Source of the DNA: Oscillibacter sp. | GTDB lineage: Bacteria; Bacillota; Clostridia; Oscillospirales; Oscillospiraceae | DNA: 64,000 nt | Assembly: GCA_022795445.1 (NCBI GenBank) | Contig: JAAWGR010000006.1 | Coordinates: forward strand, 4,425-68,424 | Direction: 5' to 3' | In this document: positions 12,905 to 61,611 of the stretch, in pieces | Position numbering within the stretch: position 1 is the first letter of the stretch | Layout of the letters: each line of letters starts with the position of its first letter | Program-made: the position numbers and the translations under genes | The notes under the pieces: generated by a model | The model's database searches: none | What the model saw: only the letters and a program-made list of their open reading frames with translations | Told to the model about the DNA's origin: nothing

Positions 12905-12924
12905 AAGGGTTGCCTCGCTTTCGT

Positions 12925-13781: not shown

Positions 13782-13810
13782 TTGACAACAGCGAATCTAT
13801 CCCTTATAAT
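13782..13810 (+). promoter_or_regulatory. SigA-type promoter for yceD-rpmF
   Basis: TTGACA, a 17-nt spacer, then TATAAT, ending 27 nt upstream of the yceD start. Confidence 0.6.
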
Positions 13811-13837
13811 AGCACGTGTGTCATTGCGAGGTAGTTT

Positions 13838-14317: not shown

Positions 14318-14375
14318 AGACCAAAGAAGGACGGGATCACACCTGGGCCTTTTGTATGAATAAGGAGGTGTCAAA

Positions 14376-14570
14376 ATGGCAGTACCCAAGGGGAAGGTAT
14401 CCAAAGCAAGACGGGACAAACGGCGCAGTTCTACCTGGAAGCTGGCAGCGCCCAATCTGGTCGTGTGCCCGAAATGCGGTGCTATGCACCTGCCTCATAG
14501 AATGTGCCGCGAGTGCGGTACTTACAACGGTCGGGAAATCAAGGTTGTAAAATCCGTCGTCTCGAAATAA
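14376..14570 (+). CDS. rpmF: 50S ribosomal protein L32
   Basis: MAVPKGKVSKARRDKRR... with CPKCG...CRECG. RBS AAGGAGG lies upstream. Confidence 0.95.
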   Translation: MAVPKGKVSKARRDKRRSSTWKLAAPNLVVCPKCGAMHLPHRMCRECGTYNGREIKVVKSVVSK

Positions 14571-43781: not shown

Positions 43782-45167
43782 ATGGCACAAGCGTTCTTCG
43801 GCGGCGTTCATCCCCATGACATGAAAGCCGCAACCAATGAGAAGGCCATCGAGCAGCTGGCGCCGCCGGCTGAGGTGGTCATTCCTATGTCCATGCACTT
43901 CGGCGCACCGTGTACCCCTCTGGTCAAAGCTGGCGACCTGGTGAAGGTTGGCCAGAAGATCGGCGAGTTCCGGGGTCTTGGCGCTCCGATCCACGCCAGC
44001 GTTTCCGGCAAGGTGAAGGCGGTGGAGCCGCGGCCCTATTCTATGGGCGGCAACATCACGTCCATTGTCATTGAAAACGATTTTCAAGATACCGTCAGCG
44101 AGGAAGTTCAGGCGCCTGCAAACCCAGACGCCCTGACCATCGACGAGATGGTAGAGATCGTGAAAAACGCTGGTATCGTCGGCATGGGCGGTGCAACCTT
44201 CCCCACTCATGTCAAGATTTCCGGCGGCATTGGTAAAGTAGATACCGTAATCATCAACGGTGCAGAGTGCGAACCATACATTACTGGTGACCACCGTGCG
44301 ATGTTGGAACGGTCGGAAGAAATCATCGGCGGTGCTACATATCTTGCCAAGATGTTCGGTGTGGAGAAAGTCGTCATCGGTGTTGAGGTCAACAAGCAGA
44401 ACGGCATCGACCAGATGAACAAAACGATTGCTGAAAAACATGCTCCTGTCGTGGTGGAGGGTTTGCGGTGCCGCTACCCTCAGGGCGGTGAAAAACAGCT
44501 CTGCCAGGCGATCACCGGTAAGCAGGTGCCCCCCGGCGGGCTGCCCAGCAATATCGGCTGCGCTGTGTTCAACATTAACACCACCATCGCCATCTACCAT
44601 GCGATCACAACCGGTATGCCTGTGGTGAAAAAAGTTGTTACAGTGTCTGGCTCTGGCATCATCGAACCTAAAAACCTGGAATGCCCCATCGGTACTCCCG
44701 TTTCCTGCCTGTTTGACGCCTGCGGCGGTCTGAAGGACGGCACTTATAAAATCATTGCCGGTGGTCCCATGATGGGTATGGCCCAGTATACTGCTGATAT
44801 TCCCGTTGCCAAGGGCACTGGCGCCATTCTGGCTTTCTGTGAGAAAGAAGAGCAGACCGTTGAGCATCCCCAGTGCATCCGCTGCGGCAAGTGTGTCGCC
44901 GCCTGCCCAATGCACCTGGAGCCCCTGTTCCTGTACCAGTATGCCTCCAAGGGTATGGTCGATGAGCTGAATGACGCCCATATCATGGACTGTATGGAGT
45001 GCGGTGCGTGCGCGTACACCTGCCCCGCCCGGCTCCACTTGACCCATATGTTCAAAACTGGCAAGCAGTTAGTGAAAGACGCCGCTGCCAAGGCCAAAGC
45101 CGCTGAAGAGGCCAAAAAGGCCGCAGATGCGGCAAAGGATGAGAAGAAGGAGGTTGTCAACAAATGA
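43782..45167 (+). CDS. rnfC: Rnf electron transport complex subunit C
   Basis: NADH/FMN-binding region (GMGGATFPTHVK) and two 4Fe-4S motifs (CIRCGKCVAACP, CMECGACAYTCP), with a Lys/Ala-rich tail. Confidence 0.95.
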   Translation: MAQAFFGGVHPHDMKAATNEKAIEQLAPPAEVVIPMSMHFGAPCTPLVKAGDLVKVGQKIGEFRGLGAPIHASVSGKVKAVEPRPYSMGGNITSIVIENDFQDTVSEEVQAPANPDALTIDEMVEIVKNAGIVGMGGATFPTHVKISGGIGKVDTVIINGAECEPYITGDHRAMLERSEEIIGGATYLAKMFGVEKVVIGVEVNKQNGIDQMNKTIAEKHAPVVVEGLRCRYPQGGEKQLCQAITGKQVPPGGLPSNIGCAVFNINTTIAIYHAITTGMPVVKKVVTVSGSGIIEPKNLECPIGTPVSCLFDACGGLKDGTYKIIAGGPMMGMAQYTADIPVAKGTGAILAFCEKEEQTVEHPQCIRCGKCVAACPMHLEPLFLYQYASKGMVDELNDAHIMDCMECGACAYTCPARLHLTHMFKTGKQLVKDAAAKAKAAEEAKKAADAAKDEKKEVVNK

Positions 45168-46204
45168 CGGACTACAAAAATCTGAAGCTGATCGCCACTT
45201 CTTCCCCACATATCCGCGGCTCCGAGCGCACCCAGACCATTATGCTGGACGTGATTATCGCGATGCTGCCCGCGTTGGCGTTCGCTTGCTTCAACTTTGG
45301 TATCCGCGCTCTGACTGTAGTCATTGTATCTGTAGCGGGCTGCATGTTCTTCGAGTGGCTGTACCGCAAGCTTCTGAATAAACCCCAATCCGTGATGGAC
45401 CTCAGCAGCGCTGTAACCGGTATGCTGCTGGCTTTTGTCTGCCCTGTGCAGATTCCTTATTGGATGATCCTGATTGGCGACTTCTTCGCCATTGTTATTG
45501 TCAAGCAGCTTTTTGGCGGCATTGGCAAGAACTTTATCAACCCTGCCCTGGCAGGCCGCGCTATCCTGCTGGCCAGCTATGCCGGCACGATGACCAGTTG
45601 GGTTGACCCCGCCGCCGGCAAGGCCGCAATCCTCGGCTCGAACGTCGATGTAATCACCGCCGCAACTCCGCTCTCCTATATGTCTGGCCCCGACGCCGCG
45701 TCCATTGCTGCCAGCTTTGAGCAGCTCAAGGGCACTTACGATGTTACCCAGATGTTCCTGGGCCAGATTGGCGGTTCCCTGGGCGAGGTTTCCGCTCTGA
45801 TGCTGATCATCGGCGGCGTGTATCTGATCTGGCGCAAAGTCATCAATTGGCAAACTCCCGTTTGCTACATTGCCACTGTCGCTGTGTTAACCTTCCTGTT
45901 CCCCAGAGGCGGCACTGGCCTGGAGTGGATGCTGTACAGCATCTTTGGCGGCGGCCTGATGCTGGGTGCGTTCTTCATGGCGACCGACTATGCAACCTCT
46001 CCCGTCACCAAGAAGGGTCAGATTATCTTTGGTATCGGCTGTGGCCTGTTCACCGTGCTGATCCGGTACTTCGGTTCCTATAACGAGGGCGTCTGCTACT
46101 CGATCATGGTCATGAACCTGTTTGTGGCTCTGATCGACAAGTATACGAAGCCCACCCGCTTCGGCGTTGTGACATCGGATAAGAAGGAGGCGTCCGCAAA
46201 ATGA
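45164..46204 (+). CDS. rnfD: Rnf complex subunit D
   Basis: Polytopic NqrB/RnfD-type protein (SSPHIR... FMATDYATSP). Confidence 0.9.
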   Translation: MTDYKNLKLIATSSPHIRGSERTQTIMLDVIIAMLPALAFACFNFGIRALTVVIVSVAGCMFFEWLYRKLLNKPQSVMDLSSAVTGMLLAFVCPVQIPYWMILIGDFFAIVIVKQLFGGIGKNFINPALAGRAILLASYAGTMTSWVDPAAGKAAILGSNVDVITAATPLSYMSGPDAASIAASFEQLKGTYDVTQMFLGQIGGSLGEVSALMLIIGGVYLIWRKVINWQTPVCYIATVAVLTFLFPRGGTGLEWMLYSIFGGGLMLGAFFMATDYATSPVTKKGQIIFGIGCGLFTVLIRYFGSYNEGVCYSIMVMNLFVALIDKYTKPTRFGVVTSDKKEASAK

Positions 46205-46833
46205 GCAACGAAGTAAAAAGCAAGGAAAAGGTTCAAATGGACCCTCAATACATCATCAAGCTGACGGTAACCCTGCTGATTACCTGTGTTGTGGTTGCCG
46301 CAGCGCTGGGCGGCGTCAATGCTATTACGGCTGAAAAGATCGCCGCAATCAACTGGGAAAATACGGTCACTGCTATGAAGGCTGTTGTGGCTGACCCAGA
46401 CGGCACAACGTTCTCTGACGCGTTGGAGCTGACCGACACCATGACCGCTGCCGCGTCGTCTGCCGGCGGCACCCTGGATTCTGTGTATGAGGCTCAGGCT
46501 AACGGTCAGTCTGCCGGTTACGCCATCAAGGTCGTCACCAGCGGTTCTCAGGGCAAGATTGAAATGATGGTGGGCGTGGACGCCGAGGGCACCGTCACTG
46601 GCGTTTCTATCGTCAAGAATTCCGAGACCTCCGGCATCGGTTCCAAGGTTATGACCAATTTGCCTACCGCTAACGGCGTGGGTGTGCTGAGCCAGTTTGA
46701 GGGCAAGAGCGCCGCCGACGGCACCCTGATCGTGGGCAGCAACGTGGACGCCATCTCCGGCGCTACGGTGTCCACCCGCGGTGTGACCAATGGCGTGAAT
46801 GCGGCCCTAGCCGTGTTTGATGTCATGGGCTGA
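46201..46833 (+). CDS. rnfG: Rnf complex subunit G
   Basis: N-terminal TM helix plus an FMN_bind domain (GSQG...VDAISGATVSTRGV). Confidence 0.9.
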   Translation: MSNEVKSKEKVQMDPQYIIKLTVTLLITCVVVAAALGGVNAITAEKIAAINWENTVTAMKAVVADPDGTTFSDALELTDTMTAAASSAGGTLDSVYEAQANGQSAGYAIKVVTSGSQGKIEMMVGVDAEGTVTGVSIVKNSETSGIGSKVMTNLPTANGVGVLSQFEGKSAADGTLIVGSNVDAISGATVSTRGVTNGVNAALAVFDVMG

Positions 46834-46851
46834 GAAAGGGGGAGCTAAAAC

Positions 46852-47451
46852 ATGAATTTTGGTAAACAACTGAAAGAGGGTCTGCTGACACAGAACCCAG
46901 TTCTTGTGCAGGTCTTAGGTATGTGTTCCACCATGGCGATTACGACGTCCATGGCCAATGGCATCGGTATGGGCATCTCCGTGCTGATCATCCTGACGGC
47001 CTCTAACGTGGTTATTTCCGCCATCCGCAAGGTCGTTCCTGACAAAATCCGTATCGCAATGTTTATCGTAGTTATCGCAGGCTTTGTTACCTGCGTTGAC
47101 CTGCTGCTGCAGGCCTTTGTTCCAGCAATCGCGGCCTCCCTGGGCGTGTTCATCCCGTTGATCGTCGTGAACTGCATTATCTTAGGCCGTGCAGAGTCCT
47201 TCTCTTATAAGAACGGCGTTGTTGCGTCCTTTGTGGACGGCATCTGCCAGGGTCTGGGCTATACCGTTGTGCTGTTGGTGATGTGCTTCATCCGCGAACT
47301 GCTGGGTGCTGGTACTCTGGCGGGCTTCCGCATCATCCCGGAGCAGTTCCCTATCGGCGTGTTGACACTTCCGGTGGGTGGCTTCCTGGTGCTGGGTTTT
47401 CTGATTGCCGCCATGCAGTGGGCGCTTTCCAAGTCGAAGGAGGGCAAGTAA
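46852..47451 (+). CDS. rnfE: Rnf complex subunit E
   Basis: NqrD/RnfE-type six-TM protein (NPVLVQVLGMCSTMA...LIVVNCIILGRAE). Confidence 0.9.
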   Translation: MNFGKQLKEGLLTQNPVLVQVLGMCSTMAITTSMANGIGMGISVLIILTASNVVISAIRKVVPDKIRIAMFIVVIAGFVTCVDLLLQAFVPAIAASLGVFIPLIVVNCIILGRAESFSYKNGVVASFVDGICQGLGYTVVLLVMCFIRELLGAGTLAGFRIIPEQFPIGVLTLPVGGFLVLGFLIAAMQWALSKSKEGK

Positions 47452-48042
47452 ATGGATCAGATTTATCAACTCCTGGCAATTACGCTGGGCGCCATTCTGG
47501 CGAATAACTTTATTTTCTCCCAGTTTCTGGGCATCTGTCCCTTCTTGGGCGTTTCCAAGAAAGTGGACACTGCCGTTGGTATGGGCATTGCCGTGACTTT
47601 TGTCATGGGTTTGGCCTCCGCGATCACTTGGCTTGTCAATAAGTTCGTACTGGTGCAGTTCGGCCTGGAATATATGCAAACCGTAGCTTTCATCCTGGTT
47701 ATTGCATCCCTGGTGCAGTTCATTGAGATGTTCCTGCAAAAGTCTATGCCCTCCCTGTATACGGCCCTGGGCGTGTATCTGCCCTTGATTACCACCAACT
47801 GCGCAGTGCTGGGCGTTGCGCTGTTGAACATCCAAGAGAACTACAATTTTATTGAGTCTGTGGTCTACGGCATCACTGGCGGTATCGGCTTCCTGCTGGC
47901 AATCGTGCTGTTTGCCAGCATTCGGGAGCGTTTGGTGTTTGCCGATTATCCCAAGAGCTTTGAAGGCTTCCCCATCGCCCTGGTCACAGCTGGCCTGATG
48001 GCGCTGGCGTTCATGGGCTTCTCCGGCCTGAGCATTTGGTAA
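47452..48042 (+). CDS. rnfA: Rnf complex subunit A
   Basis: NqrE/RnfA-type protein ([18 protein letters not shown]...[13 protein letters not shown]). Confidence 0.9.
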
Positions 48043-48054
48043 GGGGGAAAGGAA

Positions 48055-48945
48055 ATGAATATTGTTGCTGCTGTTATTACGCTGGGCGTGCTGGGCGCTT
48101 TGTTCGGCTTTGTCCTGGCGATTGCCTCGAAAGTGTTCGAGGTGAAGAAAGACCCCCGTGAGGAAGCCATCCTGAGCCACTTGGCGGGCGCAAACTGCGG
48201 CGGCTGTGGCTTCCCTGGTTGCGGCGGCTGTGCTGCTGCGATCCTGGCAGGTACTGCCCCGGTTACTGCCTGCGCTCCTGCTGGCGCGGAGAACGCTGCT
48301 GCCATCGCTCAGATCATGGGCATGGAGGCTCCTACCGGCGAGCGCGAGGTTGCTTTTGTCCGCTGTACCGGCGGTGTCAATGCGAAGAAGCGTTTTGACT
48401 ATGTTGGCGTAAAGGACTGCATCTCTGCGACAAAAGTTGCCGGCGGCCCACTGGAGTGCGGCTTCGGCTGCCTGGGCTTCGGTTCCTGCGTGAACGCCTG
48501 TCAGTTCGGTGCGATGTCCATCGGTCCCAACGGCACCGCCGTAGTAGACCCCGAGAAGTGTACCGACTGTATGGCTTGCGCCGCTGCCTGTCCGCGGCAT
48601 TTGATCGTGTCAGTCCCGGTTTCTAAAAAGGTCCATGTCGGTTGCGCCAACCAAGATAAGGGCAAGGCCGCGATGAGCGTCTGCTCCAGCTCTTGCATCG
48701 GCTGCGGCCTGTGCCAGAAGGAATGTAAAAAGGATGCCATCCACGTCGTCAATGGCGTAGCGGTCATCGACTATGCAAAGTGCGTGGGCTGCAAGCTCTG
48801 CACGAAGGTTTGCCCGCGTGATGCCATCCTTCCCGTCGCGACTGCGGAGGAGAAGGAGAAATATAAGGAAATTAAGAAGAAGCAAGCTGAAAAGGCTAAG
48901 GCCGCTGCCGCCGCGAAAGCGGAAGCAGAAGCCGCTGCAAAATAA
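48055..48945 (+). CDS. rnfB: Rnf complex subunit B
   Basis: N-terminal TM helix, CGGCGFPGCGGC, then several ferredoxin CxxCxxCxxxCP motifs and a Lys/Ala/Glu-rich tail. Confidence 0.9.
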   Translation: MNIVAAVITLGVLGALFGFVLAIASKVFEVKKDPREEAILSHLAGANCGGCGFPGCGGCAAAILAGTAPVTACAPAGAENAAAIAQIMGMEAPTGEREVAFVRCTGGVNAKKRFDYVGVKDCISATKVAGGPLECGFGCLGFGSCVNACQFGAMSIGPNGTAVVDPEKCTDCMACAAACPRHLIVSVPVSKKVHVGCANQDKGKAAMSVCSSSCIGCGLCQKECKKDAIHVVNGVAVIDYAKCVGCKLCTKVCPRDAILPVATAEEKEKYKEIKKKQAEKAKAAAAAKAEAEAAAK

Positions 48946-48996: not shown

Positions 48997-49023
48997 TTCG
49001 CCGTGGCGGCTACACGGCGTTTT

Positions 49024-49578
49024 TTATTTCGAGAACATATAGCGAAACTGCCGCCGCAAAATCGTGGTCAAGGGTATGGCGAGAGTCGCCATCACGACGG
49101 CGTTGATCATGCCAACAGCAAAGCGGTAAACAGCGTCGCCGAAAATCAGGGCAGGCGTATAGTAGCCATTGAGGATACTGTCAATCAGATTTACCATCGT
49201 GTTGCCGAAAGTGGTCAGCATTGCTGCACAGATACAGACAGGAAAGCAAATCATCTTCCGCTGTTCCAGCGGGCGGCCATGCCGCAAGGAGGAAGCCGCC
49301 GCAAGGCCGACGACCAATCCCCGCAGGGCAGGGGGAATAAGGTAGAGGACGGTAGTGGCTGTGATGCCGTAAGTCAAAAGCTGTTTAAAGAACTCACCAA
49401 CCATAGCAACGGCGACAGCTTCCACTGGCCCCAGCAGCAAGGCGCTGACAACCACTGGAAGGGAACCGAAAGAAATGCGGACGTTGCCCATCTGTACTGC
49501 GACAAAAATGGAAAGGGGGACGTACAGCGCCGCTAAGACGCTGACAAGGCAAAGGGTATGCGTGCGGGATTTTAGCAT
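49024..49578 (-). CDS. folT: ECF transporter S component, folate family (FolT-like)
   Basis: 184-aa six-TM protein with S-component topology. A THF riboswitch lies directly upstream. RBS AAAGGAGG. Confidence 0.75.
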   Translation of the reverse strand: MLKSRTHTLCLVSVLAALYVPLSIFVAVQMGNVRISFGSLPVVVSALLLGPVEAVAVAMVGEFFKQLLTYGITATTVLYLIPPALRGLVVGLAAASSLRHGRPLEQRKMICFPVCICAAMLTTFGNTMVNLIDSILNGYYTPALIFGDAVYRFAVGMINAVVMATLAIPLTTILRRQFRYMFSK

Positions 49579-49909: not shown

Positions 49910-49938
49910 TTGAAAGCAAAGCAGTCGAATGGTACAAT
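49910..49938 (+). promoter_or_regulatory. Candidate SigA-type promoter for the Hsp70/J-protein operon
   Basis: TTGAAA, a 17-nt spacer, then TACAAT, 85 nt upstream of ATG 50024. An A6T6 palindrome (GAAAAAATTTTTTC) lies at 49858-49871. I could find no CIRCE (TTAGCACTC-N9-GAGTGCTAA) element. Confidence 0.45.
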
Positions 49939-50023
49939 AAAAATAAGCTGTACAAGGAAGCAAGACGAGGCATGAAAATTGGCAAAAGAACAATGCATGC
50001 AGATCAAATAAGGAGCAATTAAC

Positions 50024-51781
50024 ATGGCAATCATAGGAATTGATTTGGGAACTACAAACTCTTTAGCCTGTATCTACCAAGATGGCAAGGTGGAGCGGAT
50101 TCCTAACGAGCTGGGGGAGTACAAGACCAGCAGCGCAGTGAGTGTGCTGGAAGATGGTACGGTTCTAGTAGGCGCAGCAGCAAAGGAACGGTTAGTCTCC
50201 CACCCGGAGACCACAGCTGCCTCCTTCAAAATCTGGATGGGGACGGAAAAGTTTCTAACCCTAGGCAAACGGCAATTTAAACCAGAGGAGTTGTCCGCTC
50301 TAGTGCTCCGCCAGCTTTTGGAGGATGCTCACCGCTATCTTGGTGAACCGGTTACAGAAGCTGTTATCAGTGTTCCCGCTTATTTCAACGATGATCAGCG
50401 TTGTGCTACCAAACTGGCGGCACAGTTGGCAGGGCTGACGGTGAAGCGGCTGATCAATGAACCCTCCGCTGCTGCGCTCTATCATCGCTATAGGACCCAA
50501 AGCGGTGACGGACAGCGGATGATTGTGGACTTTGGCGGCGGTACGTTCGATGTGAGTATTGTGGACTGCTTTGAGAACATAATTGAGATTATTTCCATCG
50601 CAGGGGACAACCGTCTGGGCGGCGATGACATTGACCGGGCCATAGTTTCCTATTTCTGTAAAGAGAACCGCCTTGTGGAAAACCAGTTGGAGCCCTCCAT
50701 GCGGGCCTCCCTTTATCGGCAGGCGGAAACGGCGAAGATTGCCTTATCCAGCGCCCCGGCGGCATCCATTTCTCTCCAGCAGGGAGAGACACAGTACAGC
50801 CTTGTCCTTTCCAATGACCTTTTACGGGAGCTCTGCCAGCCGGTATTTCAAAAAGTCCGTACCGTGATTGGCCGGGCCATAAAAGACCGGGAGCGGGTGG
50901 GGCGGATCAGCGATGTGATCCTTGTAGGAGGTTCCTCTCAGCTGACGGTATTTGGAGACTTTCTGGAGGAACTGTTTGGCCGCCGTCCACATTTAGCCGC
51001 AGAACCGGATGAGATTGTCGCCTTAGGCGTAGGCCTATGCGCGGGCATCAAAGAGCGAGCGGAGGATTTGCAGGACTTAGTGATGACAGATGTCTGTCCC
51101 TTTTCTTTAGGTGTTGCCACCTACAACCACACTGGGGATCGAACGCCCCACATGGCTATCCTGATTCCCCGCAGCAGTATGCTGCCTGCCAGTCACCAGG
51201 AGCGGTTTTATACGCTCCATGATAACCAGCATGGCCTGCGGTTTGAAATCTATCAGGGTGAAGGCTACTTTGCTTCAGAGAATTTAAAGCTGGGAGAGGT
51301 AGAGGTTCGGGTTCCTCCGGGACCGGCAGGAGAGCAGTCCGCCGTAGTGACCTTTACCTACGACATTGACGGAATCCTTCATGTCAGCGCCAAAAGCAGC
51401 GGTGGTGACTATCGTGACCAATTGATTCTCAACCCCAACCTTCACCTGACGGAAGAGGGGCGGTCCAAGGCTATGGAGCGTATTCAGCAAATTCAGCTGG
51501 CGGCCCAAGGTTCCCAACGTGACCAGCTTCTTTTGGAACGGGGACTGCGGCTCTATACGCAGCTTTTGGGCAGCAAACGAGACATGGTAGCACGGATAAT
51601 CGGCTTTTGGAAAAATCTGATGGAGCAGGGGGACTTGATTGGCCGGGAGAAATATTATACACAAATTCGAGACCAGTTGGACTGGCTGGAAACCCAGGCG
51701 GAGGCAGATCCATTGGATGAGGATTTCTGGTTGGATGAGGAAGATCAGGACTTTGGCGGGTACGAAGAAATGGAGGATTAA
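50024..51781 (+). CDS. Non-canonical Hsp70 chaperone, HscC-like
   Basis: 585 aa. NBD motifs IGIDLGTTNS, SVPAYFNDDQR, LINEPSAAAL, DFGGGTFDVS and VILVGGSSQ are intact. The linker/SBD entry is LVMTDVCPFSLGV. A short helical C-terminal region ends in the acidic tail DEDFWLDEEDQDFGGYEEMED. It resembles E. coli HscC (GEYxT(S/P)S, AGDNxLGG(D/E)D) more than DnaK. RBS AAGGAG. Confidence 0.9.
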   Translation: MAIIGIDLGTTNSLACIYQDGKVERIPNELGEYKTSSAVSVLEDGTVLVGAAAKERLVSHPETTAASFKIWMGTEKFLTLGKRQFKPEELSALVLRQLLEDAHRYLGEPVTEAVISVPAYFNDDQRCATKLAAQLAGLTVKRLINEPSAAALYHRYRTQSGDGQRMIVDFGGGTFDVSIVDCFENIIEIISIAGDNRLGGDDIDRAIVSYFCKENRLVENQLEPSMRASLYRQAETAKIALSSAPAASISLQQGETQYSLVLSNDLLRELCQPVFQKVRTVIGRAIKDRERVGRISDVILVGGSSQLTVFGDFLEELFGRRPHLAAEPDEIVALGVGLCAGIKERAEDLQDLVMTDVCPFSLGVATYNHTGDRTPHMAILIPRSSMLPASHQERFYTLHDNQHGLRFEIYQGEGYFASENLKLGEVEVRVPPGPAGEQSAVVTFTYDIDGILHVSAKSSGGDYRDQLILNPNLHLTEEGRSKAMERIQQIQLAAQGSQRDQLLLERGLRLYTQLLGSKRDMVARIIGFWKNLMEQGDLIGREKYYTQIRDQLDWLETQAEADPLDEDFWLDEEDQDFGGYEEMED

Positions 51782-51784
51782 CCT

Positions 51785-54700
51785 ATGGATCGCATTTGGG
51801 AACTGTTAGGACTGGAACCAACCCAAGATGTATCTGCCATCAAGCGGGCCTATGCGCAGAAGGCCCGCATATGCCATCCAGAAGAAAATCCGGAGGGCTT
51901 TTTGCAGCTGCGGAAAGCGTATCAGGCTGCACTGGACTATGCGGAGGGCCAGGACATGTCCATGTCAACAACGGCAGAACAGCAGACGGATCACCGTGAT
52001 GAACCGCGATTTAAAGAATCCGAAGAGGATACCGCCTGGGTTTTTCAGGAAGTAATTACGGAGGACACTCCGAACCCTTATGAAAACAGCGAGGCTATCC
52101 AGCAATTTGTAGACCTCTACACTGGGAAGCAACGGAAGAATCCCAAACTGTGGATGGACTATTTTACCTCCGACGCCTTTTTAGACGCAGGCTGGGACAG
52201 CCAGTTTACTGCTCTGCTTTTGGAGAAAATCACAGAGGTGGAAAGCACTTGCGCGCTCAACCGGGAATTTATGCTCTGGTTAAGCATAGCCTATCAGTTT
52301 TCCCTGGAAGAAAAGCTGGAAATCAACCGGGAAGAGTTCCGGGTAGAGAAACGGGAACGGCACTTGAATTTTGCCCCGGGAGCGGAGTTTGATGGTATGC
52401 AGTTCATCTCCCGCATCGCTGCAAAGGGACCAATCCCCAAGAAACCCAAGGGCAACGAGTTTGCGATTCTTCAAAGTTTTCAGGACTATCGCCACCTCAT
52501 ACATTTGGCAGAGGCCGGACGTTGGGATCAGGGGGCGCTGGACGCCTATCGGAACGTTCTGAACCGTTACACCCAATCCTATATCCGGGAGCGGTGCGAG
52601 CAGCGGGTGACGCCGGACTGCGAGCGCCACCCCGCAGGGCTTCGGGTGTTCCTTCACTTTTTCCAACGGGACGACCTGCCAGAGGCTGTGTATCGGGATG
52701 CTTGGCGGCGGCTGGATTTAAAGAGCGCTATCATGGGCCGGGCGAAAGCGCTCTACGGCCCTCTGCGGGAACGTGTGCTGGCTCAGGTTCCTGGCATTTT
52801 GGGCGAGGCCCCAGAAAATTTCCTTCAGCTGAACCGGAACTTGGATGCATATCTGGCCCAAATCAAAGCGAATCCGGCAGAAGAGGAAACAGCCTCTGCC
52901 GCTTTTTTCGCAAGCGCAGAGATGCAAAAGGCGCTGCCAAGTCCCCGCTTTGTAGAGAACCAGCTGCTGTGTTACAGTAAATGGCGTCGGGTAGGCATGG
53001 GGGAAGGTTTGGTGCGCCGAATGTTGGAATTCTACCAAGAACATCCCAACATACGCAGAGCGGCAGAGGCCATTGAAGGACTGGAGGGCGATTTACGGAG
53101 CCTGACCGCCAAACGGCTGAGCAAGGAGGATGCCGAGGCGGAGGGATTTGCCTATTATGAGCATTTGACTCTAAAATACCGTCCATTTTTTCGCCATTGG
53201 CTGAACACCGGCTTTTACACTGCCCGAGACCCTGAGACCGGAACAGCCTTACAGGAGTATTTGGAGAAATGTTTCCCCTATCAAAAAAAGTGGAGCCGCC
53301 GGTTCGGTTCAAACAGGAGGACCGCAGCAGCGGCTATGGGAAGCGTAGAGGTGGATTTCTATCCACTGCACATGGAGTTTCGAGTGAATAGGAAGCCTGT
53401 GTACCGCCCTTGCCTCACTTGGGAAGAAACGACGGCGTGGGGTGGTGATTGGTTTTTCTATATGCTGCCCATTACCGCCGCGCCTTACGGCTATTTCAGA
53501 GATGTAGCACAAGAAATTTTTTCTCGTTTGGAAAAGACTGCCGCGCCAAAGGATGAACGGGCTTTGATTGCACAGTGTTTAGCGGGTTATGTTTGCTGTT
53601 TGCCGCTGGACGAGTATACTAATGAGCCTGTCCCGCCGGAAAAAGTTCTGCCGCTGGAGCTTTGCGCTGAGGGCGGAGGCCGTCTCCATGTCTGCGTCTG
53701 GCGGGACGAGGAAGGGTTGGTGACTCTTTACCAACAGACTGCTTCCGGCAGAAGGGTTCAGCGGGAATATCATCTGGAACAGGGCGAATGTTCGATAGAG
53801 GCAGCCTGGAGGCTGCTGGACGAAGCGGTATCGCCTACCCGTTTCGACCTTTCCCGTCTGCGGGAGCTGCCTTGGAACATCTACTACACACCCAACGGCG
53901 GCGAAGAGGAACATCTAAAGCGGCCCGATCTTCAGGAAACGCCCAAACCCTCTGAGGAGGAGCGGCGTAAAGTATATGAGATATTGGGCAAAGAGATAGG
54001 GGACACAGAAGTATCACCGGAAATGGAGGCGGGGGGCCTGGTGGAAATTCAATCCCTGGGAGAGTCCGCGCTGCCAATCGAGCCAGTGACGGAAGAAGCG
54101 CTGTCCACTTTATTGGTGCGTTTCCACCGGGACGAGCTGGAACGGTTGGAAATGAGCTGGATACAAGGAACGCTGGTGCTTCGCCGGGATGGCAGTAAAT
54201 ATGCCTGCCTTTATTTTGAAAACCGCTTTAGTGACTATGGTGAATATTGGTATTCCCTGCTGTCAGATTCAGAGATGTACCGGACAGTAGACAGCAGCGA
54301 CATTGTATATCTCCCCTTTGGCATGGGAAAGTTGCCAGAGTATTCTATTTTCGAGAGTGCAGCGGAACTCATGGAGAATATCGGCGAGGTGCTGGCCCTA
54401 ATGGGTTGGGGTAAACTGGAAGATCGGGGCGGCAGGATGTGGTCCTGCGATGTAAGTCTTCATGACAGCAAACAAAGGCTTTTGATGGCCCAGCAAAAAA
54501 TGGGCGGCGTTTCGCCCAGGAGAGGTCGCAACCATCTTTTAGTGAAGTTTATCCCCAGCCGCTATCCCGTTCAGATCGAGGGTGAGGATATACAGGGAAA
54601 ACGGACACTGGAAACCTTGAAGGGCGGCAGCTATGGGCAAGCCGCCGCTGGACTGACGCGGTTCATGATGGAGAAGCTATCCCGTCTGCGGCTGAGCTGG

Positions 54701-55018
54701 GTGTTCCAAGCGGCGGATGGCGAAGCGTATTACCGGCATATGGTTCTTTTGCGGGATAATGGCCGCTTTATGTTGCTCTGGCTTCAGGACGACAAACAGC
54801 GGGCGGATGCCTATGCGTCGAACGATCCGGTAACCTTTCTGGGTCATGTAGTCCCAGCCTGCTTGGTTCATCAGGATTTGATGCGTATTCGGAACTGTGT
54901 GGACTTGCTTCTGGATGACATCGACTGTACTGAGCCGGTGGTAGATCGGCCTGGAGAGTTTGTTCCGCTCTCCCTGCCCTACGGAGAGATCCGGACGGCA
55001 TTGGTAAAGGAGGAATAG
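51785..55018 (+). CDS. Giant J-domain protein (N-terminal DnaJ domain with HPE variant, then about 1020 aa of unassigned sequence)
   Basis: 1077 aa. Residues 1-56 are J-domain-like (IWELLGL...SAIKRAYAQKARICHPEENPEGFLQLRKAYQAALDY). The ATG lies 3 nt after the hsp70 stop, with GGAGG inside the hsp70 3' end. No TM segments are visible, and I recognise no other motifs. Confidence 0.85.
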   Translation: MDRIWELLGLEPTQDVSAIKRAYAQKARICHPEENPEGFLQLRKAYQAALDYAEGQDMSMSTTAEQQTDHRDEPRFKESEEDTAWVFQEVITEDTPNPYENSEAIQQFVDLYTGKQRKNPKLWMDYFTSDAFLDAGWDSQFTALLLEKITEVESTCALNREFMLWLSIAYQFSLEEKLEINREEFRVEKRERHLNFAPGAEFDGMQFISRIAAKGPIPKKPKGNEFAILQSFQDYRHLIHLAEAGRWDQGALDAYRNVLNRYTQSYIRERCEQRVTPDCERHPAGLRVFLHFFQRDDLPEAVYRDAWRRLDLKSAIMGRAKALYGPLRERVLAQVPGILGEAPENFLQLNRNLDAYLAQIKANPAEEETASAAFFASAEMQKALPSPRFVENQLLCYSKWRRVGMGEGLVRRMLEFYQEHPNIRRAAEAIEGLEGDLRSLTAKRLSKEDAEAEGFAYYEHLTLKYRPFFRHWLNTGFYTARDPETGTALQEYLEKCFPYQKKWSRRFGSNRRTAAAAMGSVEVDFYPLHMEFRVNRKPVYRPCLTWEETTAWGGDWFFYMLPITAAPYGYFRDVAQEIFSRLEKTAAPKDERALIAQCLAGYVCCLPLDEYTNEPVPPEKVLPLELCAEGGGRLHVCVWRDEEGLVTLYQQTASGRRVQREYHLEQGECSIEAAWRLLDEAVSPTRFDLSRLRELPWNIYYTPNGGEEEHLKRPDLQETPKPSEEERRKVYEILGKEIGDTEVSPEMEAGGLVEIQSLGESALPIEPVTEEALSTLLVRFHRDELERLEMSWIQGTLVLRRDGSKYACLYFENRFSDYGEYWYSLLSDSEMYRTVDSSDIVYLPFGMGKLPEYSIFESAAELMENIGEVLALMGWGKLEDRGGRMWSCDVSLHDSKQRLLMAQQKMGGVSPRRGRNHLLVKFIPSRYPVQIEGEDIQGKRTLETLKGGSYGQAAAGLTRFMMEKLSRLRLSWVFQAADGEAYYRHMVLLRDNGRFMLLWLQDDKQRADAYASNDPVTFLGHVVPACLVHQDLMRIRNCVDLLLDDIDCTEPVVDRPGEFVPLSLPYGEIRTALVKEE

Positions 55019-55021
55019 GCC

Positions 55022-58000
55022 ATGGGCAACATTTGGACAGTTTTAGGGTTGGAAGCAACCCAGGATATTTCGGCCATTAAGCAGGCCTATGCGCAGAAGA
55101 CCAGAACCTGTCACCCAGAAGATAACCCCGAGGGATTCTTGCAATTGCGCAAAGCATATCAGGCAGCGATGGATTATGCGGAGGGAAAAACAGATATTTC
55201 CTCAGAAGGACAGGAGCTATCTGACAGGCTGGATAGAGGAGAAACGGAAGACGAAGGCTGGACACTCTCCGAAAAACCGGTGGTATTGGAGGAAGGCCCC
55301 AATCCGTACACAGACCATGAGGCAATCCAAAAATTCCTGGCTCTTTACACTGGCAAGCAGCGAAAGGATTCCAACCTTTGGCTGGACTATTTCACCTCCG
55401 ATGCCTTTTTAGATGTAGCTTGGGAACGGCAGTTCACTGCGCTGCTTCTGGAGCATATAACCCGGTTAGAGAAAACATATCCAGTAAACCGTGAACTTTT
55501 GAACTGGCTGTGTGTGGCCTACCGGTTCTATGTCATGCAGTCTGTATATCAGAACCCGGATGGCAGCGAGTGGACAGAGTTTCAGTTTCAGATTGACCGG
55601 AACGCACGATTTGATGGCCAGAATTCCATTTTTGAGATTGCTACAAAAGGTCCCGCGCCCAAGCAGCCAAAGGGCAATGGGCTGGCGATGTTCCACAGCT
55701 TTGCAGAGTACCACAGTTTGCTCCGTATGGCGGAGGACAGCGTTTGGAGCGAGCAGGACATCGGAAAATTCAGTGAAATCATTGGGTGTTATGCCGCGAG
55801 CTATATTACCGACAAATGCCAGCAGCGGATGGATATGGACCACGAGCGCCATCCCGCTGGGCTGCGGCTGCTGGCCCACTTCTTCCGGCGGAATGGCTTG
55901 CCGGAGGAAGTATATCGTATTGCATGGCAGAAGTTAGACCTGAAAACAGCGGTCATGGGGCGGGCTAGATTCTCTATGGCTCCATGCGGGAACTGGTTTT
56001 GGAGAGTTTGCCGGAGTTAGCAGGGGAGCAAAAGATAAGCTATACCAAACTGCGGACAGAGTTCCATAACTACGCTGTCAGTACCTATAAGAGCGGCGGC
56101 GAAAACGCTCAAGCGACTGCGGAGGATATCCGGAAAACCGATGCTTTCTTTGCCCGGGAGGATTTTCAGCGGGCCCTTTTGGACCGCCGCATGGTAGAGG
56201 AGGAATTGCTCCATACCTGGGTAGATAAAACGCAATGCGACTACTACCTTAACCAGATCATCCGATTCTATGAAGAGCACGAAACGGCTCCCTGTGCCCA
56301 AAAGGTCATCGACCGGGCCCAGGAGATGTTAAAATGCCAGGAGTTGGCCGACCGCCTGCGGACCGACCGAGAAGCTGAGACCTCAAACAGTGAAATTACC
56401 CTCAAAAGCACGTCCTTCTTTCGCCACTGGCTGAACACGGGGTTCTATCACGCCCAGGACCGAGAATCTGGTCGTGGGCTGATGGTGTATTTGAATAATG
56501 AACTACCGTTTCTGCCGGAATGGAGCCGAGGTTTTCTGGAGGTGGAGGACGGTGAAATTCCTACGCCCGTTTTGGTTGGCTGCGTTCTGGATGGTAATGC
56601 AATTGAGGTACGCTTCCACCTGCGTTATATGTCCTTCCTGATCAACGGGGAACCAGTCTACCGTCCCTGCCTTCCCTGGGAGAGGGTGGCGGCGTTGACA
56701 GACACAGATGCGTTCTTTTTCCTGCTTCCTATTACCACAACTACTTATGACCAATATGAAACTGTGAAAGCGGAAGTTCTTTTCCGCCTGACCGATACCG
56801 CCGCTCCGGAGTCTGGCCGAATATTCATTGCTGGGTGTCTTGCCGACCAGGTATGCGGCCTGCCTATTTCCGGAGCGGCGAGGGAGTCTGGATGGAGGGA
56901 GGACGAAGAATCGCCGGTGGTCCGTTCCCTGCCGCCGGAGAGCGTTTTGCCCTTTGAGATTTGTGCCGAAGATGCAGATCGGCTCTTTGTTTGTGTTTGG
57001 TTCGAACAAGAGCAAATTCTGGCGCTCTACCAGCAGACTCTCTACGGAAAACAAGCAGTAAGGGATGGACAATACCACGATGTGCAAGATGCCCAGTCCG
57101 CCGTAGCCCTGGCCTGCCAGCTGATGCAGGAGCAATTGTTTCCCACAGGATTTCCTATGGAGAAATTGAAGGTTTTGCCAGAGGCTGTTTATGCTCAGTG
57201 GGACTATATGATGATTTCACGTGAGAACCGTGAAAAAGACATAGAATTGCCTGTCGGGTGGAGTGCCCCTGTGAAGCTGCTGGGAGAGGAAGTCACTCTC
57301 GAAAAGCTAGAGGAACTGCTAATCCAGTTTGATGCTGGGCGTATTCAGCGGATGGAGTGGTCTTGGCATACTTCCATTCCTGTAGGGGAAGAGCAGGACT
57401 ATGAACCGCTCCGCTCCCTGGTGCTCCTGAAGGAAAGTGGATATGTTTGCCTCTATTTTGACGACTTCCGAGCAGAGTCTTATGCTCTTTTAGAACAGCC
57501 AGAGTTGTACGGGAACGAAGAATGGAGGTCAAAGCTGGTTCCCTTCCGCAAAAGCAAGCTGTTTGACGATGTGATTCACCGTCGTTTTTCCAGCATCCGC
57601 CGACACCTGTCTGTGATATTCAGCCAGGTCAGCTGGCCCAGCAACGTGAATTTTATGGCACACGGCATCTGGACCTATGCCGAACACGTCTCCCATGGAA
57701 GGGTGAAATATAACCTAGACAAGCAGCTTCTGGGGGATTTCCCCATGGAGCGAGCCCATAACCGGGCAGATGCACTGTTCTACTTTTCCCTCTATCCCAA
57801 CTCCGCTGCCTGTGTGGACGATGCAGGTAGCGTGGAGACCCTAGTGGTCAGTGACCTGAAAAGGCCTCGACTCCAGCAAATGTTAGCGCAGTTTTTACAG
57901 GGCGGTTTCCGAAAGCTGCGGCTGACTTGGGGAAAGGAGACTGGACAGCGGCAGCACATCGTCCTGCTGCAAGACAGTAAGCGGCTCCTGATGGCCTGGG

Positions 58001-58290
58001 TGCTGGAAGAGGAGCAGACAGTAAAGTACCATGTGGCTGACCATAGAACCTATATAGATATAGAGGGGAAAAAGTACCATAAGGATATCTTCCAAGGCCG
58101 GGCTGTCCCCGCTTATCTGATCCATAACAGCGTGACGCCTCTGCGCAATGCATTGGAGTTGTTACTGGCGAGCATAGATAGGCCCAGTATCATCACAGAA
58201 GCATTTGGAGAGTATGCCTGGGAAAAACCGGGAAAACCCAGGCCCTATGAAATGCTCTGGACGGAGCTGATAAGCGATACGCTAAATTAA
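55022..58290 (+). pseudogene. Paralog of the giant J-domain protein, split by a 1-nt frameshift near 55967-55970
   Basis: ORFs 55022-56020 (332 aa, J-domain with CHPEDNPEG) and 55984-58290 (768 aa) are collinear with the 1077-aa neighbour. Compare ..LDLKTAVMGRA|R|ILYGSMRELVLESLPELAGE with ..LDLKSAIMGRAKALYGPLRERVLAQVPGILGE. Restoring one A in GCTAGATTC would give about 1089 aa. This may be a real mutation or a sequencing error. Confidence 0.8.
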
Positions 58291-58364: not shown

Positions 58365-60305
58365 TTACTTGACACAACTCCACTCGTTCACTGGCGGCAG
58401 GCATCTGTGGCCTTGGCAGACATAAAAGGTAGTTTTTCCATTTTTCAGCGGATATTCGTTTCCCGGTTCTTGCAGGATAACCACTGCCTCTGCCGGAAGG
58501 TTTCGAGGAAGTGCCTCTGCTTCCGACTTTTTTGCAAGTGACACAGTTACTCTTGGCGGTGGATCATTGAAATCCAGCAGCGCCAGCAGGAACATCGCAT
58601 AACCGGGGGGATATTGTACTGCGTCTGCCGCTAGAAAGTCCAACTGCCGTCTCGCCAGCCGCTCATAGTCTTTATCGGAAACAAGCTGACTGAGCCTCAC
58701 CAGATTCCAGGCCATCAAAGAGTTTCCGCTTGGAATTGCTCCATCATAGGTTTCTTTCGGACGAAAAATGAGAGATTCGCTTCCTTCTCCATAAAGGTAG
58801 AAACCACCTTTTTCAGCGTCCTGGAATTTGGCGAATGTATCCCGACAGAGTCGTTCGGCCTTGGAAAGATAGTTCATTTCCAAAGTGGCGCCGTACAGCG
58901 CCAGCTGTGAGAAGATAGAAGTGGCATAATCATCCAGGAACCCCATAGCTCCGCGCTTTCCAGCTCGAAAACTGACATAGAGCGTTTTTCCATCCCAAAG
59001 ATGTTTCCAAAGAAAGCTGTCTGCTCGTTTAGCGGCGTCCAGGTACGTCTGCTTTCCGGATGCCTGATACAACCGGCATAGCGCTGCGATCATCAAGGCA
59101 TTCCAAGCTGTTAAGACCTTGTCGTCCAGATGAAGGGCACAGCGCCCTCTGCGGTACTGTTCAACAGGTTTCAAGCAGATGTCAAAGGAACGATCGGTTG
59201 GGTCGCTGTAAAGTAAATTTGGGATATTTTTTCCCTCAAAATTCCCAGCGGCCGTGATATCAAAATGTCGGTTGAAAGCCGCGCCTTGTTCCTGCCCCAA
59301 GACATGGAGAAGTTCTTCCGGCGTGAAGAGATAATATTTTCCTTCTACACCGTCGCTGTCGGCATCCTGGGCACTGTAGAACCCACCTTCTGCATCGGTC
59401 ATTTCCCACAGAATAAAATCTGCAGTCCGTTCTGCTGCCAGCAGGTATAGGTTCTTCTTTCCGATTGCGTAAGCTTCGCAATAGGAGAAAATCAGCAAGG
59501 CGTTATCATACAGCATCTTCTCAAAATGTGGGGTTAGAAACTGTTCATCTGTAGAGTAGCGGCAGAAGCCGCCGCCGATGTGGTCGAATAACCCGCCCCG
59601 GTACATCTGCGTCAGTGTCTGTTCTGCCATTTCCAGGCAGAGTCTGTCACCTCGCCGCCGGTAGTAAGCCAACAGAAACAAGAGGTTATGGGGAGACGGG
59701 AATTTGGGTGCATCGCCGAAACCGCCGTTTTTATGGTCAAAATTCCGTTTGTAAAGCTCCACAGCGGTTTCCAGCAGACCGGATTCCACGTTTCCTTGGA
59801 ATGTCAGCTGGTGGTTCATCATAGAAACAATTTCTTCTGCCTCTCCCAGAAGAGCAGAACGGTCTTGTTCCCATTTTTCGTGAATCAACACCAGCAAGTC
59901 CCGAAACCCCACCATACCGCCCTGGCCATGCTTTGGGAAATAAGTTCCAGCGAAGAAGGGATGACGTGCCGGTGTCAGGAAAATATTAGCCGGCCAGCCG
60001 CCGCTGCCGGTAAGTGCCTGGCAGACGGCCATATAAACGCTGTCTATGTCTGGCCGTTCCTCCCGGTCCACCTTGACGGAGACAAACCAGCGGTTCAGCA
60101 AATCTGCAATCTCAGGGTCCTCGAAGCAATCGTGAGCCATGACGTGACACCAATGACAGGTACTGTAGCCGATGCTGAGGAAAATCGGTTTATCTTCCTT
60201 CTTGGCCTTACGAAAGGCATCCTCGCCCCAAGGATACCAATCTACTGGGTTCTCTGCGTGTTGGAGCAAATAGGGGCTGGTTTCTTCTTTTAAATGATTC
60301 GGCAT
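58365..60305 (-). CDS. Thioredoxin domain-containing protein YyaL (DUF255 + six-hairpin glycosidase-like domain)
   Basis: N-terminus [19 protein letters not shown] and the thioredoxin-like motif [13 protein letters not shown]. Start at ATG 60305 (MPNHLKEE), 5 nt after the upstream gene's stop. The longer ORF start at 60347 overlaps that gene. Confidence 0.85.
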
Positions 60306-60309
60306 ATAG

Positions 60310-61611
60310 TCAAATTCTCCTCTTGTCATCAGTAGCTGGGTTGTCAATTAACGTCCCATCCTTGCTAAACCGGGAGCCATGGCAAGGGCAGTCCCAACTC
60401 TGCTCAGCGGCGTTGTACTTCAATGCACAGCCCATATGAGGGCAGCGGGGTTTGGTTGGCGTCAGCAGGCCTAGGGTAGACTCCAGTCCATTTACAGCTA
60501 GTTGCTGCCGCAGAACGGTTCGAGAAGGATTGAACAAACTGGCGTAAGGATTCTCCCGTCTCAGTATCAAATCTCGCAAGACCATTGCCGCCGCCATGGA
60601 GGAGGTCATACCCCACTTATTGAAACCCGTTACTACATATAGGTTTGGCGTACTTTTCGCATATTGTCCAATATAGGGTGCGCCGTCTAGGGTTATGCAG
60701 TCCTGTGCAGCCCAGCGGGCGATTTCTTGAGCGTCAGGCCAATACCTGCGAACGAAGTCCTCAAGTTCTCGCCATCCATTGCCTGCTTTTCCAGTTCGAC
60801 GGCTTCCGCCCCCCAGGAGAAGCAGATTTTTATAACAGCGAAAGGATAATCCTTTTTTATTTTCGTCCCGATACATCCCGTCTATTTTCGGAGCGTTTTT
60901 CAGTGCCAGGACATAGGAACGTTCCTGATAGAGCTTGAGAAAATACCCGCCATGCTTATTGAGGAGGGGGAAGTGGGTTGCAACGATGATTTTTTCTGCC
61001 ATAACGGTCCCGCCGTTTGTGACGGCCTTACCGGGGCCGAGTTCCAAAACCTTGGTATGCTCAAAAATACGCAGATTTTTTGCGATGGAGGCCAGGAATT
61101 TCAACGGATGGAATTGGGCCTGTCCCTCAAACCGCAGTGCCCCTGCCGTAGGAAACGGCAGGGGCAGGCTTGTAACCAGCTCCGCCGGAAAACCCAGGCG
61201 TGACAAGGCGGTCTGTTCTTGTTCCAACTTTCGGCGGTCGTGAAGTGCGTAAATGTATGCATCACGCTCCTCAAAATCACAGTCGATATTTTGGCACAGA
61301 GTTCGATAGTCCTCTAACGCAGCTCGGTTTGCATCCAAATAAAGACGGGCCATTCCAACGCCGAATTTCTGGATAAGTTTGTCATAAATCAAGCCATGCT
61401 GAACAGTGATTTTTGCGGTAGTGTCCTTTGAAATACCGCCGCCGATGCGGTCCGCCTCCACTAGGGCATAATCTACCCCGGCCCGGGCCAGCCAATAGGC
61501 GCACAGCACTCCGGCCATGCCGCCGCCGATGATCAGCACACCGGTTTTCAAATCCTTATCCAGAGGCGCGAACTGGGGCAGTTGTGCCGTCTGCGTCCAT
61601 ATGGAATCCAT
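60310..61611 (-). CDS. FAD-dependent oxidoreductase fused to a C-terminal Rieske [2Fe-2S] domain
   Basis: N-terminal dinucleotide fold [21 protein letters not shown], and a C-terminal Rieske motif CPHMGC...CPCHGSRF. Confidence 0.85.

Follow-up and report, generated by a model that had tools for sequence, protein, structure and literature searches.

A putative dedicated Hsp70 system of the HscC kind with two giant J-domain proteins in Clostridia

Which kind of Hsp70 system is encoded by an operon that sets a single Hsp70 gene ahead of two genes for giant J-domain proteins? The locus raising this question lies in a stretch of 64,000 nt of Oscillibacter sp. DNA (GCA_022795445.1, contig JAAWGR010000006.1), referred to here as the window. 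A scan for open reading frames (ORFs) located on its plus strand an hscC-like Hsp70 gene (50024–51781, 585 amino acids [aa]), followed by the genes for J1, a giant, predicted soluble class-C J-domain protein (51785–55018, 1,077 aa), and for its paralogue J2 (55022–58290, 1,089 aa when intact, two ORFs in the window). The analysis makes it somewhat probable that the operon encodes a Clostridia-specific version of the HscC/DjlB-DjlC kind of Hsp70 system, dedicated and self-contained, in which the giant J-proteins would select the clients.

The product of the first gene matched Pfam PF00012 with 359.4 bits (cutoff 20.6), and its residues 3–486 align with Geobacillus DnaK, with all ATPase motifs present. 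With the NCBIfam DnaK equivalog, 362 bits were obtained, below the cutoffs of 648 and 822, and the HscA equivalog cutoff was likewise missed. In BLASTP comparisons the protein scored 426 bits with HscC from B. mycoides (40% identity, 7 gaps over 562 aa), 356 with an Hsp70 from an Enterobacteriaceae plasmid, 326 with E. coli HscC (35% identity), 279 with DnaK and 213 with HscA. The alignments with HscC proteins covered the full length with 7–13 gaps; the placement with HscC is based on pairwise scores.

The pattern of insertions and deletions points to HscC as well. In a four-way alignment, the gaps in the nucleotide-binding domain (NBD) were those of E. coli HscC, loop L1,2 of the β-part of the substrate-binding domain (SBD-β) carried 6 extra residues (YN..HTGDRTPHMA), as in HscC, and the short lid aligned with HscC alone. 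A T-containing linker is common to both proteins (LVMTDVCPFSLG versus VILTDICPYSLG). The approximate layout comprises the NBD (residues 1–345), the linker LVMTD, the SBD-β with the L1,2 insertion, the short lid and an acidic tail, and the arginine that contacts the J-domain (KRLINEP) is conserved. Deletions in the NBD, an L1,2 insertion of 4–8 aa, a shortened lid and a length of ~550–580 aa are hallmarks of HscC (Mayer 2021, PMC8215388); the Oscillibacter protein fits them, its 585 aa counting an extra C-terminal tail. A homologue with 89% identity has already been named HscC by JGI. A first-pass annotation of this DNA had described a non-canonical, HscC-like Hsp70 with a short lid, and the scores with HscC, above those with DnaK and HscA, together with the shared indels bear this out: judged by its sequence, the protein belongs, in divergent form, to the HscC clade and is not a DnaK. 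In the account given in PMC8215388, deletion of hscC is described as conferring sensitivity to Cd2+ and UV (Kluck 2002, cited there).

The C-terminal extension of the Hsp70 (51707–51778, plus strand) consists of DPLDEDFW (51707–51730) and an acidic tail with YEEMED as its last residues. In 27 of the 33 Hsp70s of the clade linked to giant J-proteins a motif DP[LFW]xx(x)[FI]W was found, with an acidic tail after it; E. coli HscC, B. mycoides HscC and the Enterobacteriaceae plasmid Hsp70 lack this motif, which may serve in partner docking.

The J-domains of J1 (51785–51949) and J2 (55022–55186, both plus strand) occupy residues 1–55; that of J1 has three helices, is of the DjlB/DjlC subtype and carries HPE at positions 31–33, and that of J2 carries HPE as well. 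Over these ~55 N-terminal residues Pfam DnaJ scored 25.9 and 24.3 bits, just below the gathering score of 27.8, because the domain is a short three-helix version with HPE for HPD. Across 40 homologues P32 and E33 are invariant and H31 is nearly so. A hidden Markov model (HMM) of the family J-domain gave 65.5 bits with DjlB, 57.7 with DjlC, 24.8 with DnaJ and 1.5 with HscB, and hhalign probabilities for the J-domains were 97–99%. DjlB and DjlC also contain HPE and align with the J-domains of J1 and J2 nearly residue for residue; the J1 domain reads ...CHPEENPEGFLQLRKAYQAAL, and that of DjlC is of the same three-helix HPE subtype. Only HPE is tolerated in place of HPD, and it occurs in DjlB/DjlC, the partners of HscC (PMC13254874), a connection also made in PMC8215388. 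Approximately 1,700 prokaryotic HPE J-proteins are known, mostly without any other annotated domain (PMC10410713). The assignment of the J1 and J2 J-domains to the DjlB/DjlC subtype is well founded at the level of profiles and alignments. The hscC-djlB-djlC locus had been put forward as the closest analogue, and HPE together with the HMM scores raises this to homology of the recruiting module.

The first-pass annotation had further placed three ORFs behind one candidate promoter. The Hsp70 and J1 genes, the spacers of exactly 3 nt between Hsp70 and J1 and between J1 and J2, the Shine-Dalgarno sequences (AGGAG/GGAGG) ahead of every start and the promoter-like site were all recovered, whereas J2 is not a single ORF of ~1,080 aa in the window. 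The promoter-like site is of the sigma-70 type (49910–49938, plus strand; TTGAAA-17-TACAAT with an extended TG before the −10 element); it matches the consensus at 10 of 12 positions, is the top scorer of the region by consensus match only, and lies ~85 nt 5′ of the Hsp70 start codon. No CIRCE operator was matched in the 64-kb window with up to 3 mismatches allowed, and no second Hsp70 or DnaJ homologue is encoded elsewhere in it. The operon's gene context contains no isc genes, and no grpE is among the genes annotated near the operon (no search aimed at grpE was made).

J2 occupies two different frames in the window, with one ORF at 55022–56020 (332 aa) and another at 55984–58290 (768 aa). 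Alignment to positions 9238–12507 of contig L070 located a 1-nt deletion at 55960–55975 (plus strand), where one A is missing at ~55967, changing GCTAAGATT to GCTAGATT. An intact J2 of 1,089 aa is encoded by L070 and L071, two independent metagenome contigs with 99.8% identity to the window, and in relatives (e.g., L001) the gene is one continuous frame. The deletion in the window may be a strain-level mutation or an assembly error. Elsewhere the window differs from L070 by 0.2–0.4% and therefore represents a different strain. J1 and intact J2 are 35% identical over 1,121 columns (617 bits), with 51% identity over residues 1–326 and ~28% beyond; on this alignment they are clearly paralogues, as had been proposed.

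A separate observation concerns the recent history of J1. The gene (51785–55018) showed 0 differences in 3,234 nt to its counterpart in L070 (6001–9234), while the flanking DNA differs by 0.19–0.26% and J2 by 0.37% (6 synonymous and 6 non-synonymous changes). As ~6.5 differences would be expected, a recent recombination or sweep across J1 may have occurred.

What do the giant J-proteins carry behind the J-domain? An AlphaFold2 model of J1, computed from a 40-sequence alignment, reached a predicted local distance difference test (pLDDT) value of 82. The modules, all on the plus strand, are an acidic disordered linker (residues 56–93, 51950–52063; pLDDT ~30) with the nearly invariant W85, an N module (residues 94–200, 52064–52384) containing NPY..EAIQ.F..LYTGKQRK..LW.DYFTSDAFLD, an all-helical domain H1 (residues 201–508, 52385–53308) with the invariant ERHPAGLR and FFRHWLNTGFY motifs, and two alpha/beta modules (53309–53944), M1 (residues 509–614, with PVYRPCL.WE) and M2 (residues 615–720). 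They are followed by a C-terminal tandem repeat (54068–55015) of C1 (residues 762–944) and C2 (945–1077), which are related to each other in J1 (hhalign probability 97.4, E 1e-11). A separate model of this repeat reached pLDDT 86 and a predicted template modelling score (pTM) of 0.84. In J2 the corresponding repeat covers residues ~754–1086 in the intact numbering (57280–58287, plus strand), and the segment HMMs scored 171.8 bits for C1 and 166.3 bits for C2.

In the alignment of 40 homologues, C271, C604, C808, H985, R1036, ERHPAGLR and RHWLNT of J1 are invariant beyond the J-domain. Natural variants of the J1 type of ~820–850 aa exist (L034:8450–10966, L035, and P0106 of 827 aa), which lack approximately residues 424–751; they miss the end of H1 and M1/M2 and retain the J-domain, the N module, the start of H1 and the C-terminal tandem repeat. 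The many invariant residues, together with the model confidence, identify J1 and J2 as real, constrained and, by prediction, folded proteins. The absence of a transmembrane segment, already remarked upon in the first-pass annotation, was confirmed for both: no segment exceeded a KD19 value of 1.5, with maxima of 1.14 in J1 and 1.47 in J2, against tail anchors in DjlB and DjlC that reach 2.39 and 1.99. On this basis both J-proteins are firmly predicted to be soluble.

The first ~55 residues had been called the only recognisable part, and the remaining ~1,000 residues unassignable; both statements withstood profile and structure searches. With Pfam, the proteins of the window and the 40 aligned homologues matched DnaJ alone, without any match in the body, and NCBIfam and PADLOC yielded no relevant body match. 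Searching PDB sequences with an HMM retrieved J-domains only. In Foldseek searches, the full-length J1 model had no match in PDB and BFVD, nor the C-terminal repeat model in PDB, at E ≤ 1e-3; the absence of a known fold refers to these solved structures (PDB) and viral models (BFVD). In J1 and J2, Pfam gave no indication of a nuclease, protease, NTPase or pore-forming domain, and no class-A DnaJ features (G/F region, zinc finger) were detected with Pfam and NCBIfam.

Several specific candidates were rejected. A SUKH-like C-terminal repeat, suspected from the secondary structure, was dismissed at the given sensitivity, the pTM 0.84 model having no PDB neighbour. A divergent TYPP/DUF1963 domain had been suspected because relatives have DUF1963 at this position and because of a GGxP/Q-like motif; hhalign with the TYPP regions of P0340 and P0319 gave a probability of 0.1, and this candidate was rejected at the same reservation of sensitivity. 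DUF1266, encoded next to the J genes in E. coli and conceivably fused into J1, was rejected at hhalign probabilities of ≤6%, and homology of the body to DjlB/DjlC at ≤2.1% for each body segment against a four-sequence alignment of the DjlB/DjlC type.

Is the association of this Hsp70 with giant J-proteins peculiar to the window? A word-indexed search returned 247 homologues of the giant J-proteins, nearly all of 1,000–1,100 aa, and their sole given name is "J domain-containing protein". In contigs representing one genome per species the family was present at 68 loci, all from Clostridia, including many metagenome-assembled genomes from mouse gut. The carriers are Oscillospiraceae (Oscillibacter, Flintibacter, Lawsonibacter), Lachnospiraceae (Acetatifactor, Hungatella) and one member of the Peptostreptococcaceae. 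The J genes were intact at 65 of the 68 loci, and at 42 a gene for an Hsp70 of the clade described above lies directly upstream at a distance of ≤1,265 nt (median gap ~45 nt). The order is usually Hsp70-J1-J2 in Oscillospiraceae; many Lachnospiraceae have the Hsp70 gene and one J gene. Conversely, Hsp70 homologues at 79% and 75% identity have giant J genes behind them, so that the synteny anticipated in the first-pass annotation holds among relatives in both directions.

The surroundings of the module vary. Flanking genes are alike only in close relatives (ECF sigma with DUF4367, DUF4317, WYL, PhoH, ribosomal genes), and the upstream regions of the loci are unlike one another, without a conserved operator. 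Defence-island context was not enriched: PADLOC and Pfam analysis of 150 non-redundant neighbours revealed one clear AbiE pair, the rest being housekeeping or regulatory genes. IMG/VR contained no relatives of the giant J-proteins, and plasmid records and the single matching phage record contained the J-domain and N module only, with no full-length homologue.

Further features were noted at individual loci. A protein of ~200 aa without Pfam match (L003:7487–8191) is encoded directly upstream of the Hsp70 gene in closely related Oscillibacter loci; the gene occurs at seven loci (L003, L005, L007, L009, L025, L027 and L042, in the last before a J2-type gene) and may be a lineage-specific accessory gene. 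In L080/L081 (Oscillospiraceae), genes for a 395-aa protein of no assigned family and a DpnII/MboI-type endonuclease (PF18742) lie at 12639–14560 between a short J1-type gene (841 aa) and a J2-type gene, and MobA/MobL relaxase and PrgI genes are found 6–8 kb upstream (1–2000). At 11 loci, ORFs of 600–1,528 aa run antisense to J genes (L003:13270–16542, minus strand; L006, L036, L055 and others). They were rejected as genes and ascribed to codon usage: the J2 gene of L003 has 64% GC and zero TTA, CTA or TCA codons, with the antisense frame in register.

The giant J-proteins belong to a wider superfamily with exchanged C-termini. An exhaustive HMMER search against 1.84 billion representatives gave 121 proteins with E ≤ 1e-30 and 2,602 with E ≤ 1e-10. 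According to the segment HMMs, many of the top matches retain the J-N-H1-M1 arrangement and have other C-termini, of which two are DUF1963/TYPP (E 1e-36 to 1e-39), one is a weak SUKH-1 match and most are unrecognisable. TYPP domains are predicted peptide-binding, chaperone-like modules (PMC4275035), and those of eukaryotes serve ribosomal protein uS5 as dedicated chaperones (PMC4275035, PMC7736825). Among the distant relatives within the superfamily of the giant J-proteins, the tripeptide of the J-domain reads NPE (P0269, P0273, P0271, P0259), HME (P0319, P0350), HLE (P0349, P0336) or HVE (P0357), and rarely HPD (P0333).

How does the operon compare with the known Hsp70 systems? With E. coli HscC-DjlB/DjlC it shares one Hsp70 of the HscC clade, two paralogous class-C J-proteins and the lack of CIRCE. 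DjlB (YbeS) and DjlC (YbeV) comprise 475 and 483 aa and have C-terminal membrane anchors in hydrophobic tails, in agreement with their earlier description as membrane-anchored and about half the size; in contrast, J1 and J2 are far longer and predicted to be soluble, and no homology was detected past the J-domain and ~35 further residues. In the E. coli ybeQRSTUV-hscC region each J gene is accompanied by DUF1266 and Sel1 genes, which are absent from the operon, from the window and from the recurrent neighbours of relatives. The E. coli hscC gene is convergent with djlC, whereas the genes studied here form one co-directional operon, and the Hsp70 has the conserved C-terminal motif that E. coli HscC lacks.

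Closer in gene order are two plasmid loci. Plasmid p322 of B. mycoides (L078) carries hscC, a gene for a 432-aa J-protein and a DUF1266 gene, with hscC preceding the J gene as in the operon, and the Enterobacteriaceae plasmid (L079) has its Hsp70 and J genes in this order, too. The Bacillus J-protein aligns with J1 from the J-domain through the linker into the first part of the N module (to approximately residue 150; hhalign probability 98.6). The Bacillus and Enterobacteriaceae J-proteins are short and plasmid-borne, with hydrophobic C-termini, and lack H1, M1, M2, C1 and C2. Gene order and the alignment of J-domain and N module indicate that, for the Hsp70 and for the recruiting end of the J-protein, the E. 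coli-type analogue is truly related. At 3939–14432 of L078, the Bacillus hscC-J-DUF1266 genes lie amid polymorphic-toxin fragments (a TNT-related glycohydrolase toxin and a pre-toxin TG protein) and a TnpB gene.

The DnaK-DnaJ-GrpE system shares with the operon the Hsp70 fold, the pairing of Hsp70 with a J-protein, the ATPase motifs and the J-contacting arginine; it differs in having HPD instead of HPE, a class-A DnaJ and CIRCE, and in the DnaK cutoffs that the operon's Hsp70 misses. A specialised Hsp70 with a dedicated class-C J-protein is also found in HscA-HscB, yet HscA was the least similar of the Hsp70s compared, HscB barely registered with the family J-domain HMM, and the isc context is missing here. 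Class-C J-proteins are very diverse. In RME-8/DNAJC13, sacsin and auxilin/GAK, a small J-domain sits on a very large body that fixes the site or target of Hsp70. The resemblance of the operon to such large eukaryotic class-C J-proteins, and to EEVD-TPR docking, where an acidic or aromatic tail motif of the Hsp70 could make a second contact, is one of working principle only; the HMM search of PDB sequences and Foldseek with the J1 model revealed no likeness in sequence or fold. The HscA-HscB pair acts independently of a nucleotide-exchange factor (PMC8215388).

Within the window, the operon is surrounded by rnfCDGEAB, a divergent ECF S-component gene with a tetrahydrofolate (THF) riboswitch, and a gene for a DUF255 thioredoxin-like protein. 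The complete rnfCDGEAB operon (43782–48945, plus strand), encoding an ion-translocating ferredoxin:NAD+ oxidoreductase, lies directly upstream and is followed by a terminator-like hairpin (48999–49019). The ECF-transporter S-component gene (PF07155/PF12822; 49024–49578, minus strand) probably encodes a folate transporter, folT-like, and is preceded by the THF riboswitch (RF01831; 49649–49754, minus strand, 85.5 bits), which shares one intergenic region with the promoter-like site of the hscC-like gene. A plus-strand ORF at 49003–49536 is probably spurious. Downstream, on the minus strand, are the DUF255 gene (58365–60347) and a gene for a DAO/Rieske oxidoreductase (60310–61611).

For a dedicated HscC-type system, the following course of events is proposed. 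The HPE J-domain would dock where the NBD and linker of the cognate Hsp70 meet and trigger ATP hydrolysis, which would clamp the Hsp70 onto a polypeptide presented by the body of the J-protein; by analogy with what has been proposed for HscC and HscA, no nucleotide-exchange factor would be needed. The C-terminal region would be the variable part that confers specificity. As it is the most diverged region between J1 and J2 and is exchanged in distant relatives, the two J-proteins would direct one Hsp70 to two clients or two states of a complex. They would act in the cytoplasm, unlike DjlB/DjlC at the membrane, and a second contact with the J-proteins, similar in kind to EEVD, may be provided by DPLxxxFW with the acidic tail of the Hsp70. 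Several observations weigh against this proposal. Fifteen loci with enough upstream sequence have no adjacent Hsp70 gene, so that the linkage is strong and not obligate; the drift of the tripeptide in distant relatives implies that some members may not stimulate any Hsp70; the frameshifted J2 suggests that at least one paralogue may be dispensable; and among the loci compared there is no conserved third gene that would hint at the client. Moreover, client binding is something we infer for a C-terminal repeat with neither a structural neighbour nor similarity to SUKH or TYPP.

The giant J-proteins could alternatively be enzymes or assembly factors that the recruited Hsp70 switches in cis, auxilin/GAK- or Tim14-like, and not adaptors delivering clients. 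The strictly invariant polar, cysteine and aromatic motifs outside the J-domain could mark an active or ligand site, the order of domains in the large, well-folded body is conserved, and the conserved tryptophan motif in the disordered linker could be a pseudo-substrate of Hsp70. However, the bodies resemble no enzyme family or fold, the middle modules are dispensable in natural variants and the C-terminus is replaceable, and we consider this explanation unlikely, if worth keeping in mind. That the operon is the general heat-shock DnaK/DnaJ system, or a decaying remnant without function, is highly improbable. The complete ATPase motifs, the 484-residue alignment to Geobacillus DnaK and the frameshift of J2 in the window would fit one or the other; but the score with the DnaK equivalog is far below both cutoffs, CIRCE and class-A DnaJ features are lacking, as had been argued earlier for CIRCE against a heat-shock dnaK operon, and the module is conserved, with intact J genes at nearly all loci, an adjoining Hsp70 gene at most, an intact J2 in the sister contigs and many invariant residues. 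In Clostridia, hrcA-grpE-dnaK-dnaJ are expected elsewhere in the same genomes.

A role in conflict or defence is doubtful and was weighed on the following grounds. The giant J-proteins would act as NLR-like sensors or effectors, with a private Hsp70 that detects or remodels invader proteins or activates a toxic state. A conserved recruiting N-terminus with exchangeable C-termini resembles the modularity of conflict systems, and domains frequent in immunity and toxin contexts, DUF1963/TYPP and a weak SUKH-1 match, occur in relatives (PMC4275035). Duplication of the J gene, the frameshift, truncated variants and varied genomic neighbourhoods fit this picture, as do the polymorphic-toxin fragments around the B. 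mycoides module and the DpnII/MboI endonuclease gene inside one relative's operon; DnaJ-dependent phage sensing by a bacterial NLR-related protein provides a precedent (PMC12169576). On the other hand, PADLOC (PADLOC-DB 2.0) assigned 0 families to all four ORF products of the operon, the AbiE pair was the one clear defence system among the 150 neighbouring ORFs, IMG/VR has no homologues and phage and plasmid records no full-length ones, the bodies lack any detectable nuclease, protease, NTPase or pore-forming domain, and the operon of the window sits between the rnf operon, the THF-riboswitch transporter gene and redox genes. More speculative still is the idea that the module, together with the wider J-N-H1-M1 superfamily, constitutes a hitherto overlooked class of machines for surveillance or conflict that Hsp70 powers, in which the variable C-terminus would sense a foreign or aberrant protein and the private Hsp70 would neutralise it or trigger a response. 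If true, it would give HscC systems in general their first functional rationale.

Bacteria possess three types of Hsp70, among them HscC, whose function has been obscure since 2002, even in E. coli. The HscC/HPE-J system as such is already known, though poorly understood, and the proteins bear the database names "Hsp70 family protein/HscC" and "J domain-containing protein". No description of the giant family or of its link to HscC turned up in searches of the literature on HscC in phage or defence contexts, on DUF1266 and on giant HPE J-proteins. What appears new are the duplicated, predicted soluble J-proteins of ~1,080 aa composed of unclassified domains. The pairing of HscC with HPE J-proteins is thereby extended to gut Clostridia in a very different form, with predicted soluble J-proteins of twice the usual size and a variable C-terminal module. 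At least one cultured carrier, Flintibacter muris DSM 110149 (L001), makes a client pull-down possible. The ~1,000 confidently modelled, unclassified residues are a possible source of new domain families, and the two diverged paralogues with the C-terminal exchanges would constitute a natural experiment on client choice by J-proteins. Should the role turn out to be ordinary proteostasis, the assignment would still help to annotate hundreds of proteins that are called "hypothetical" or "J domain-containing" in mouse- and human-gut metagenomes.

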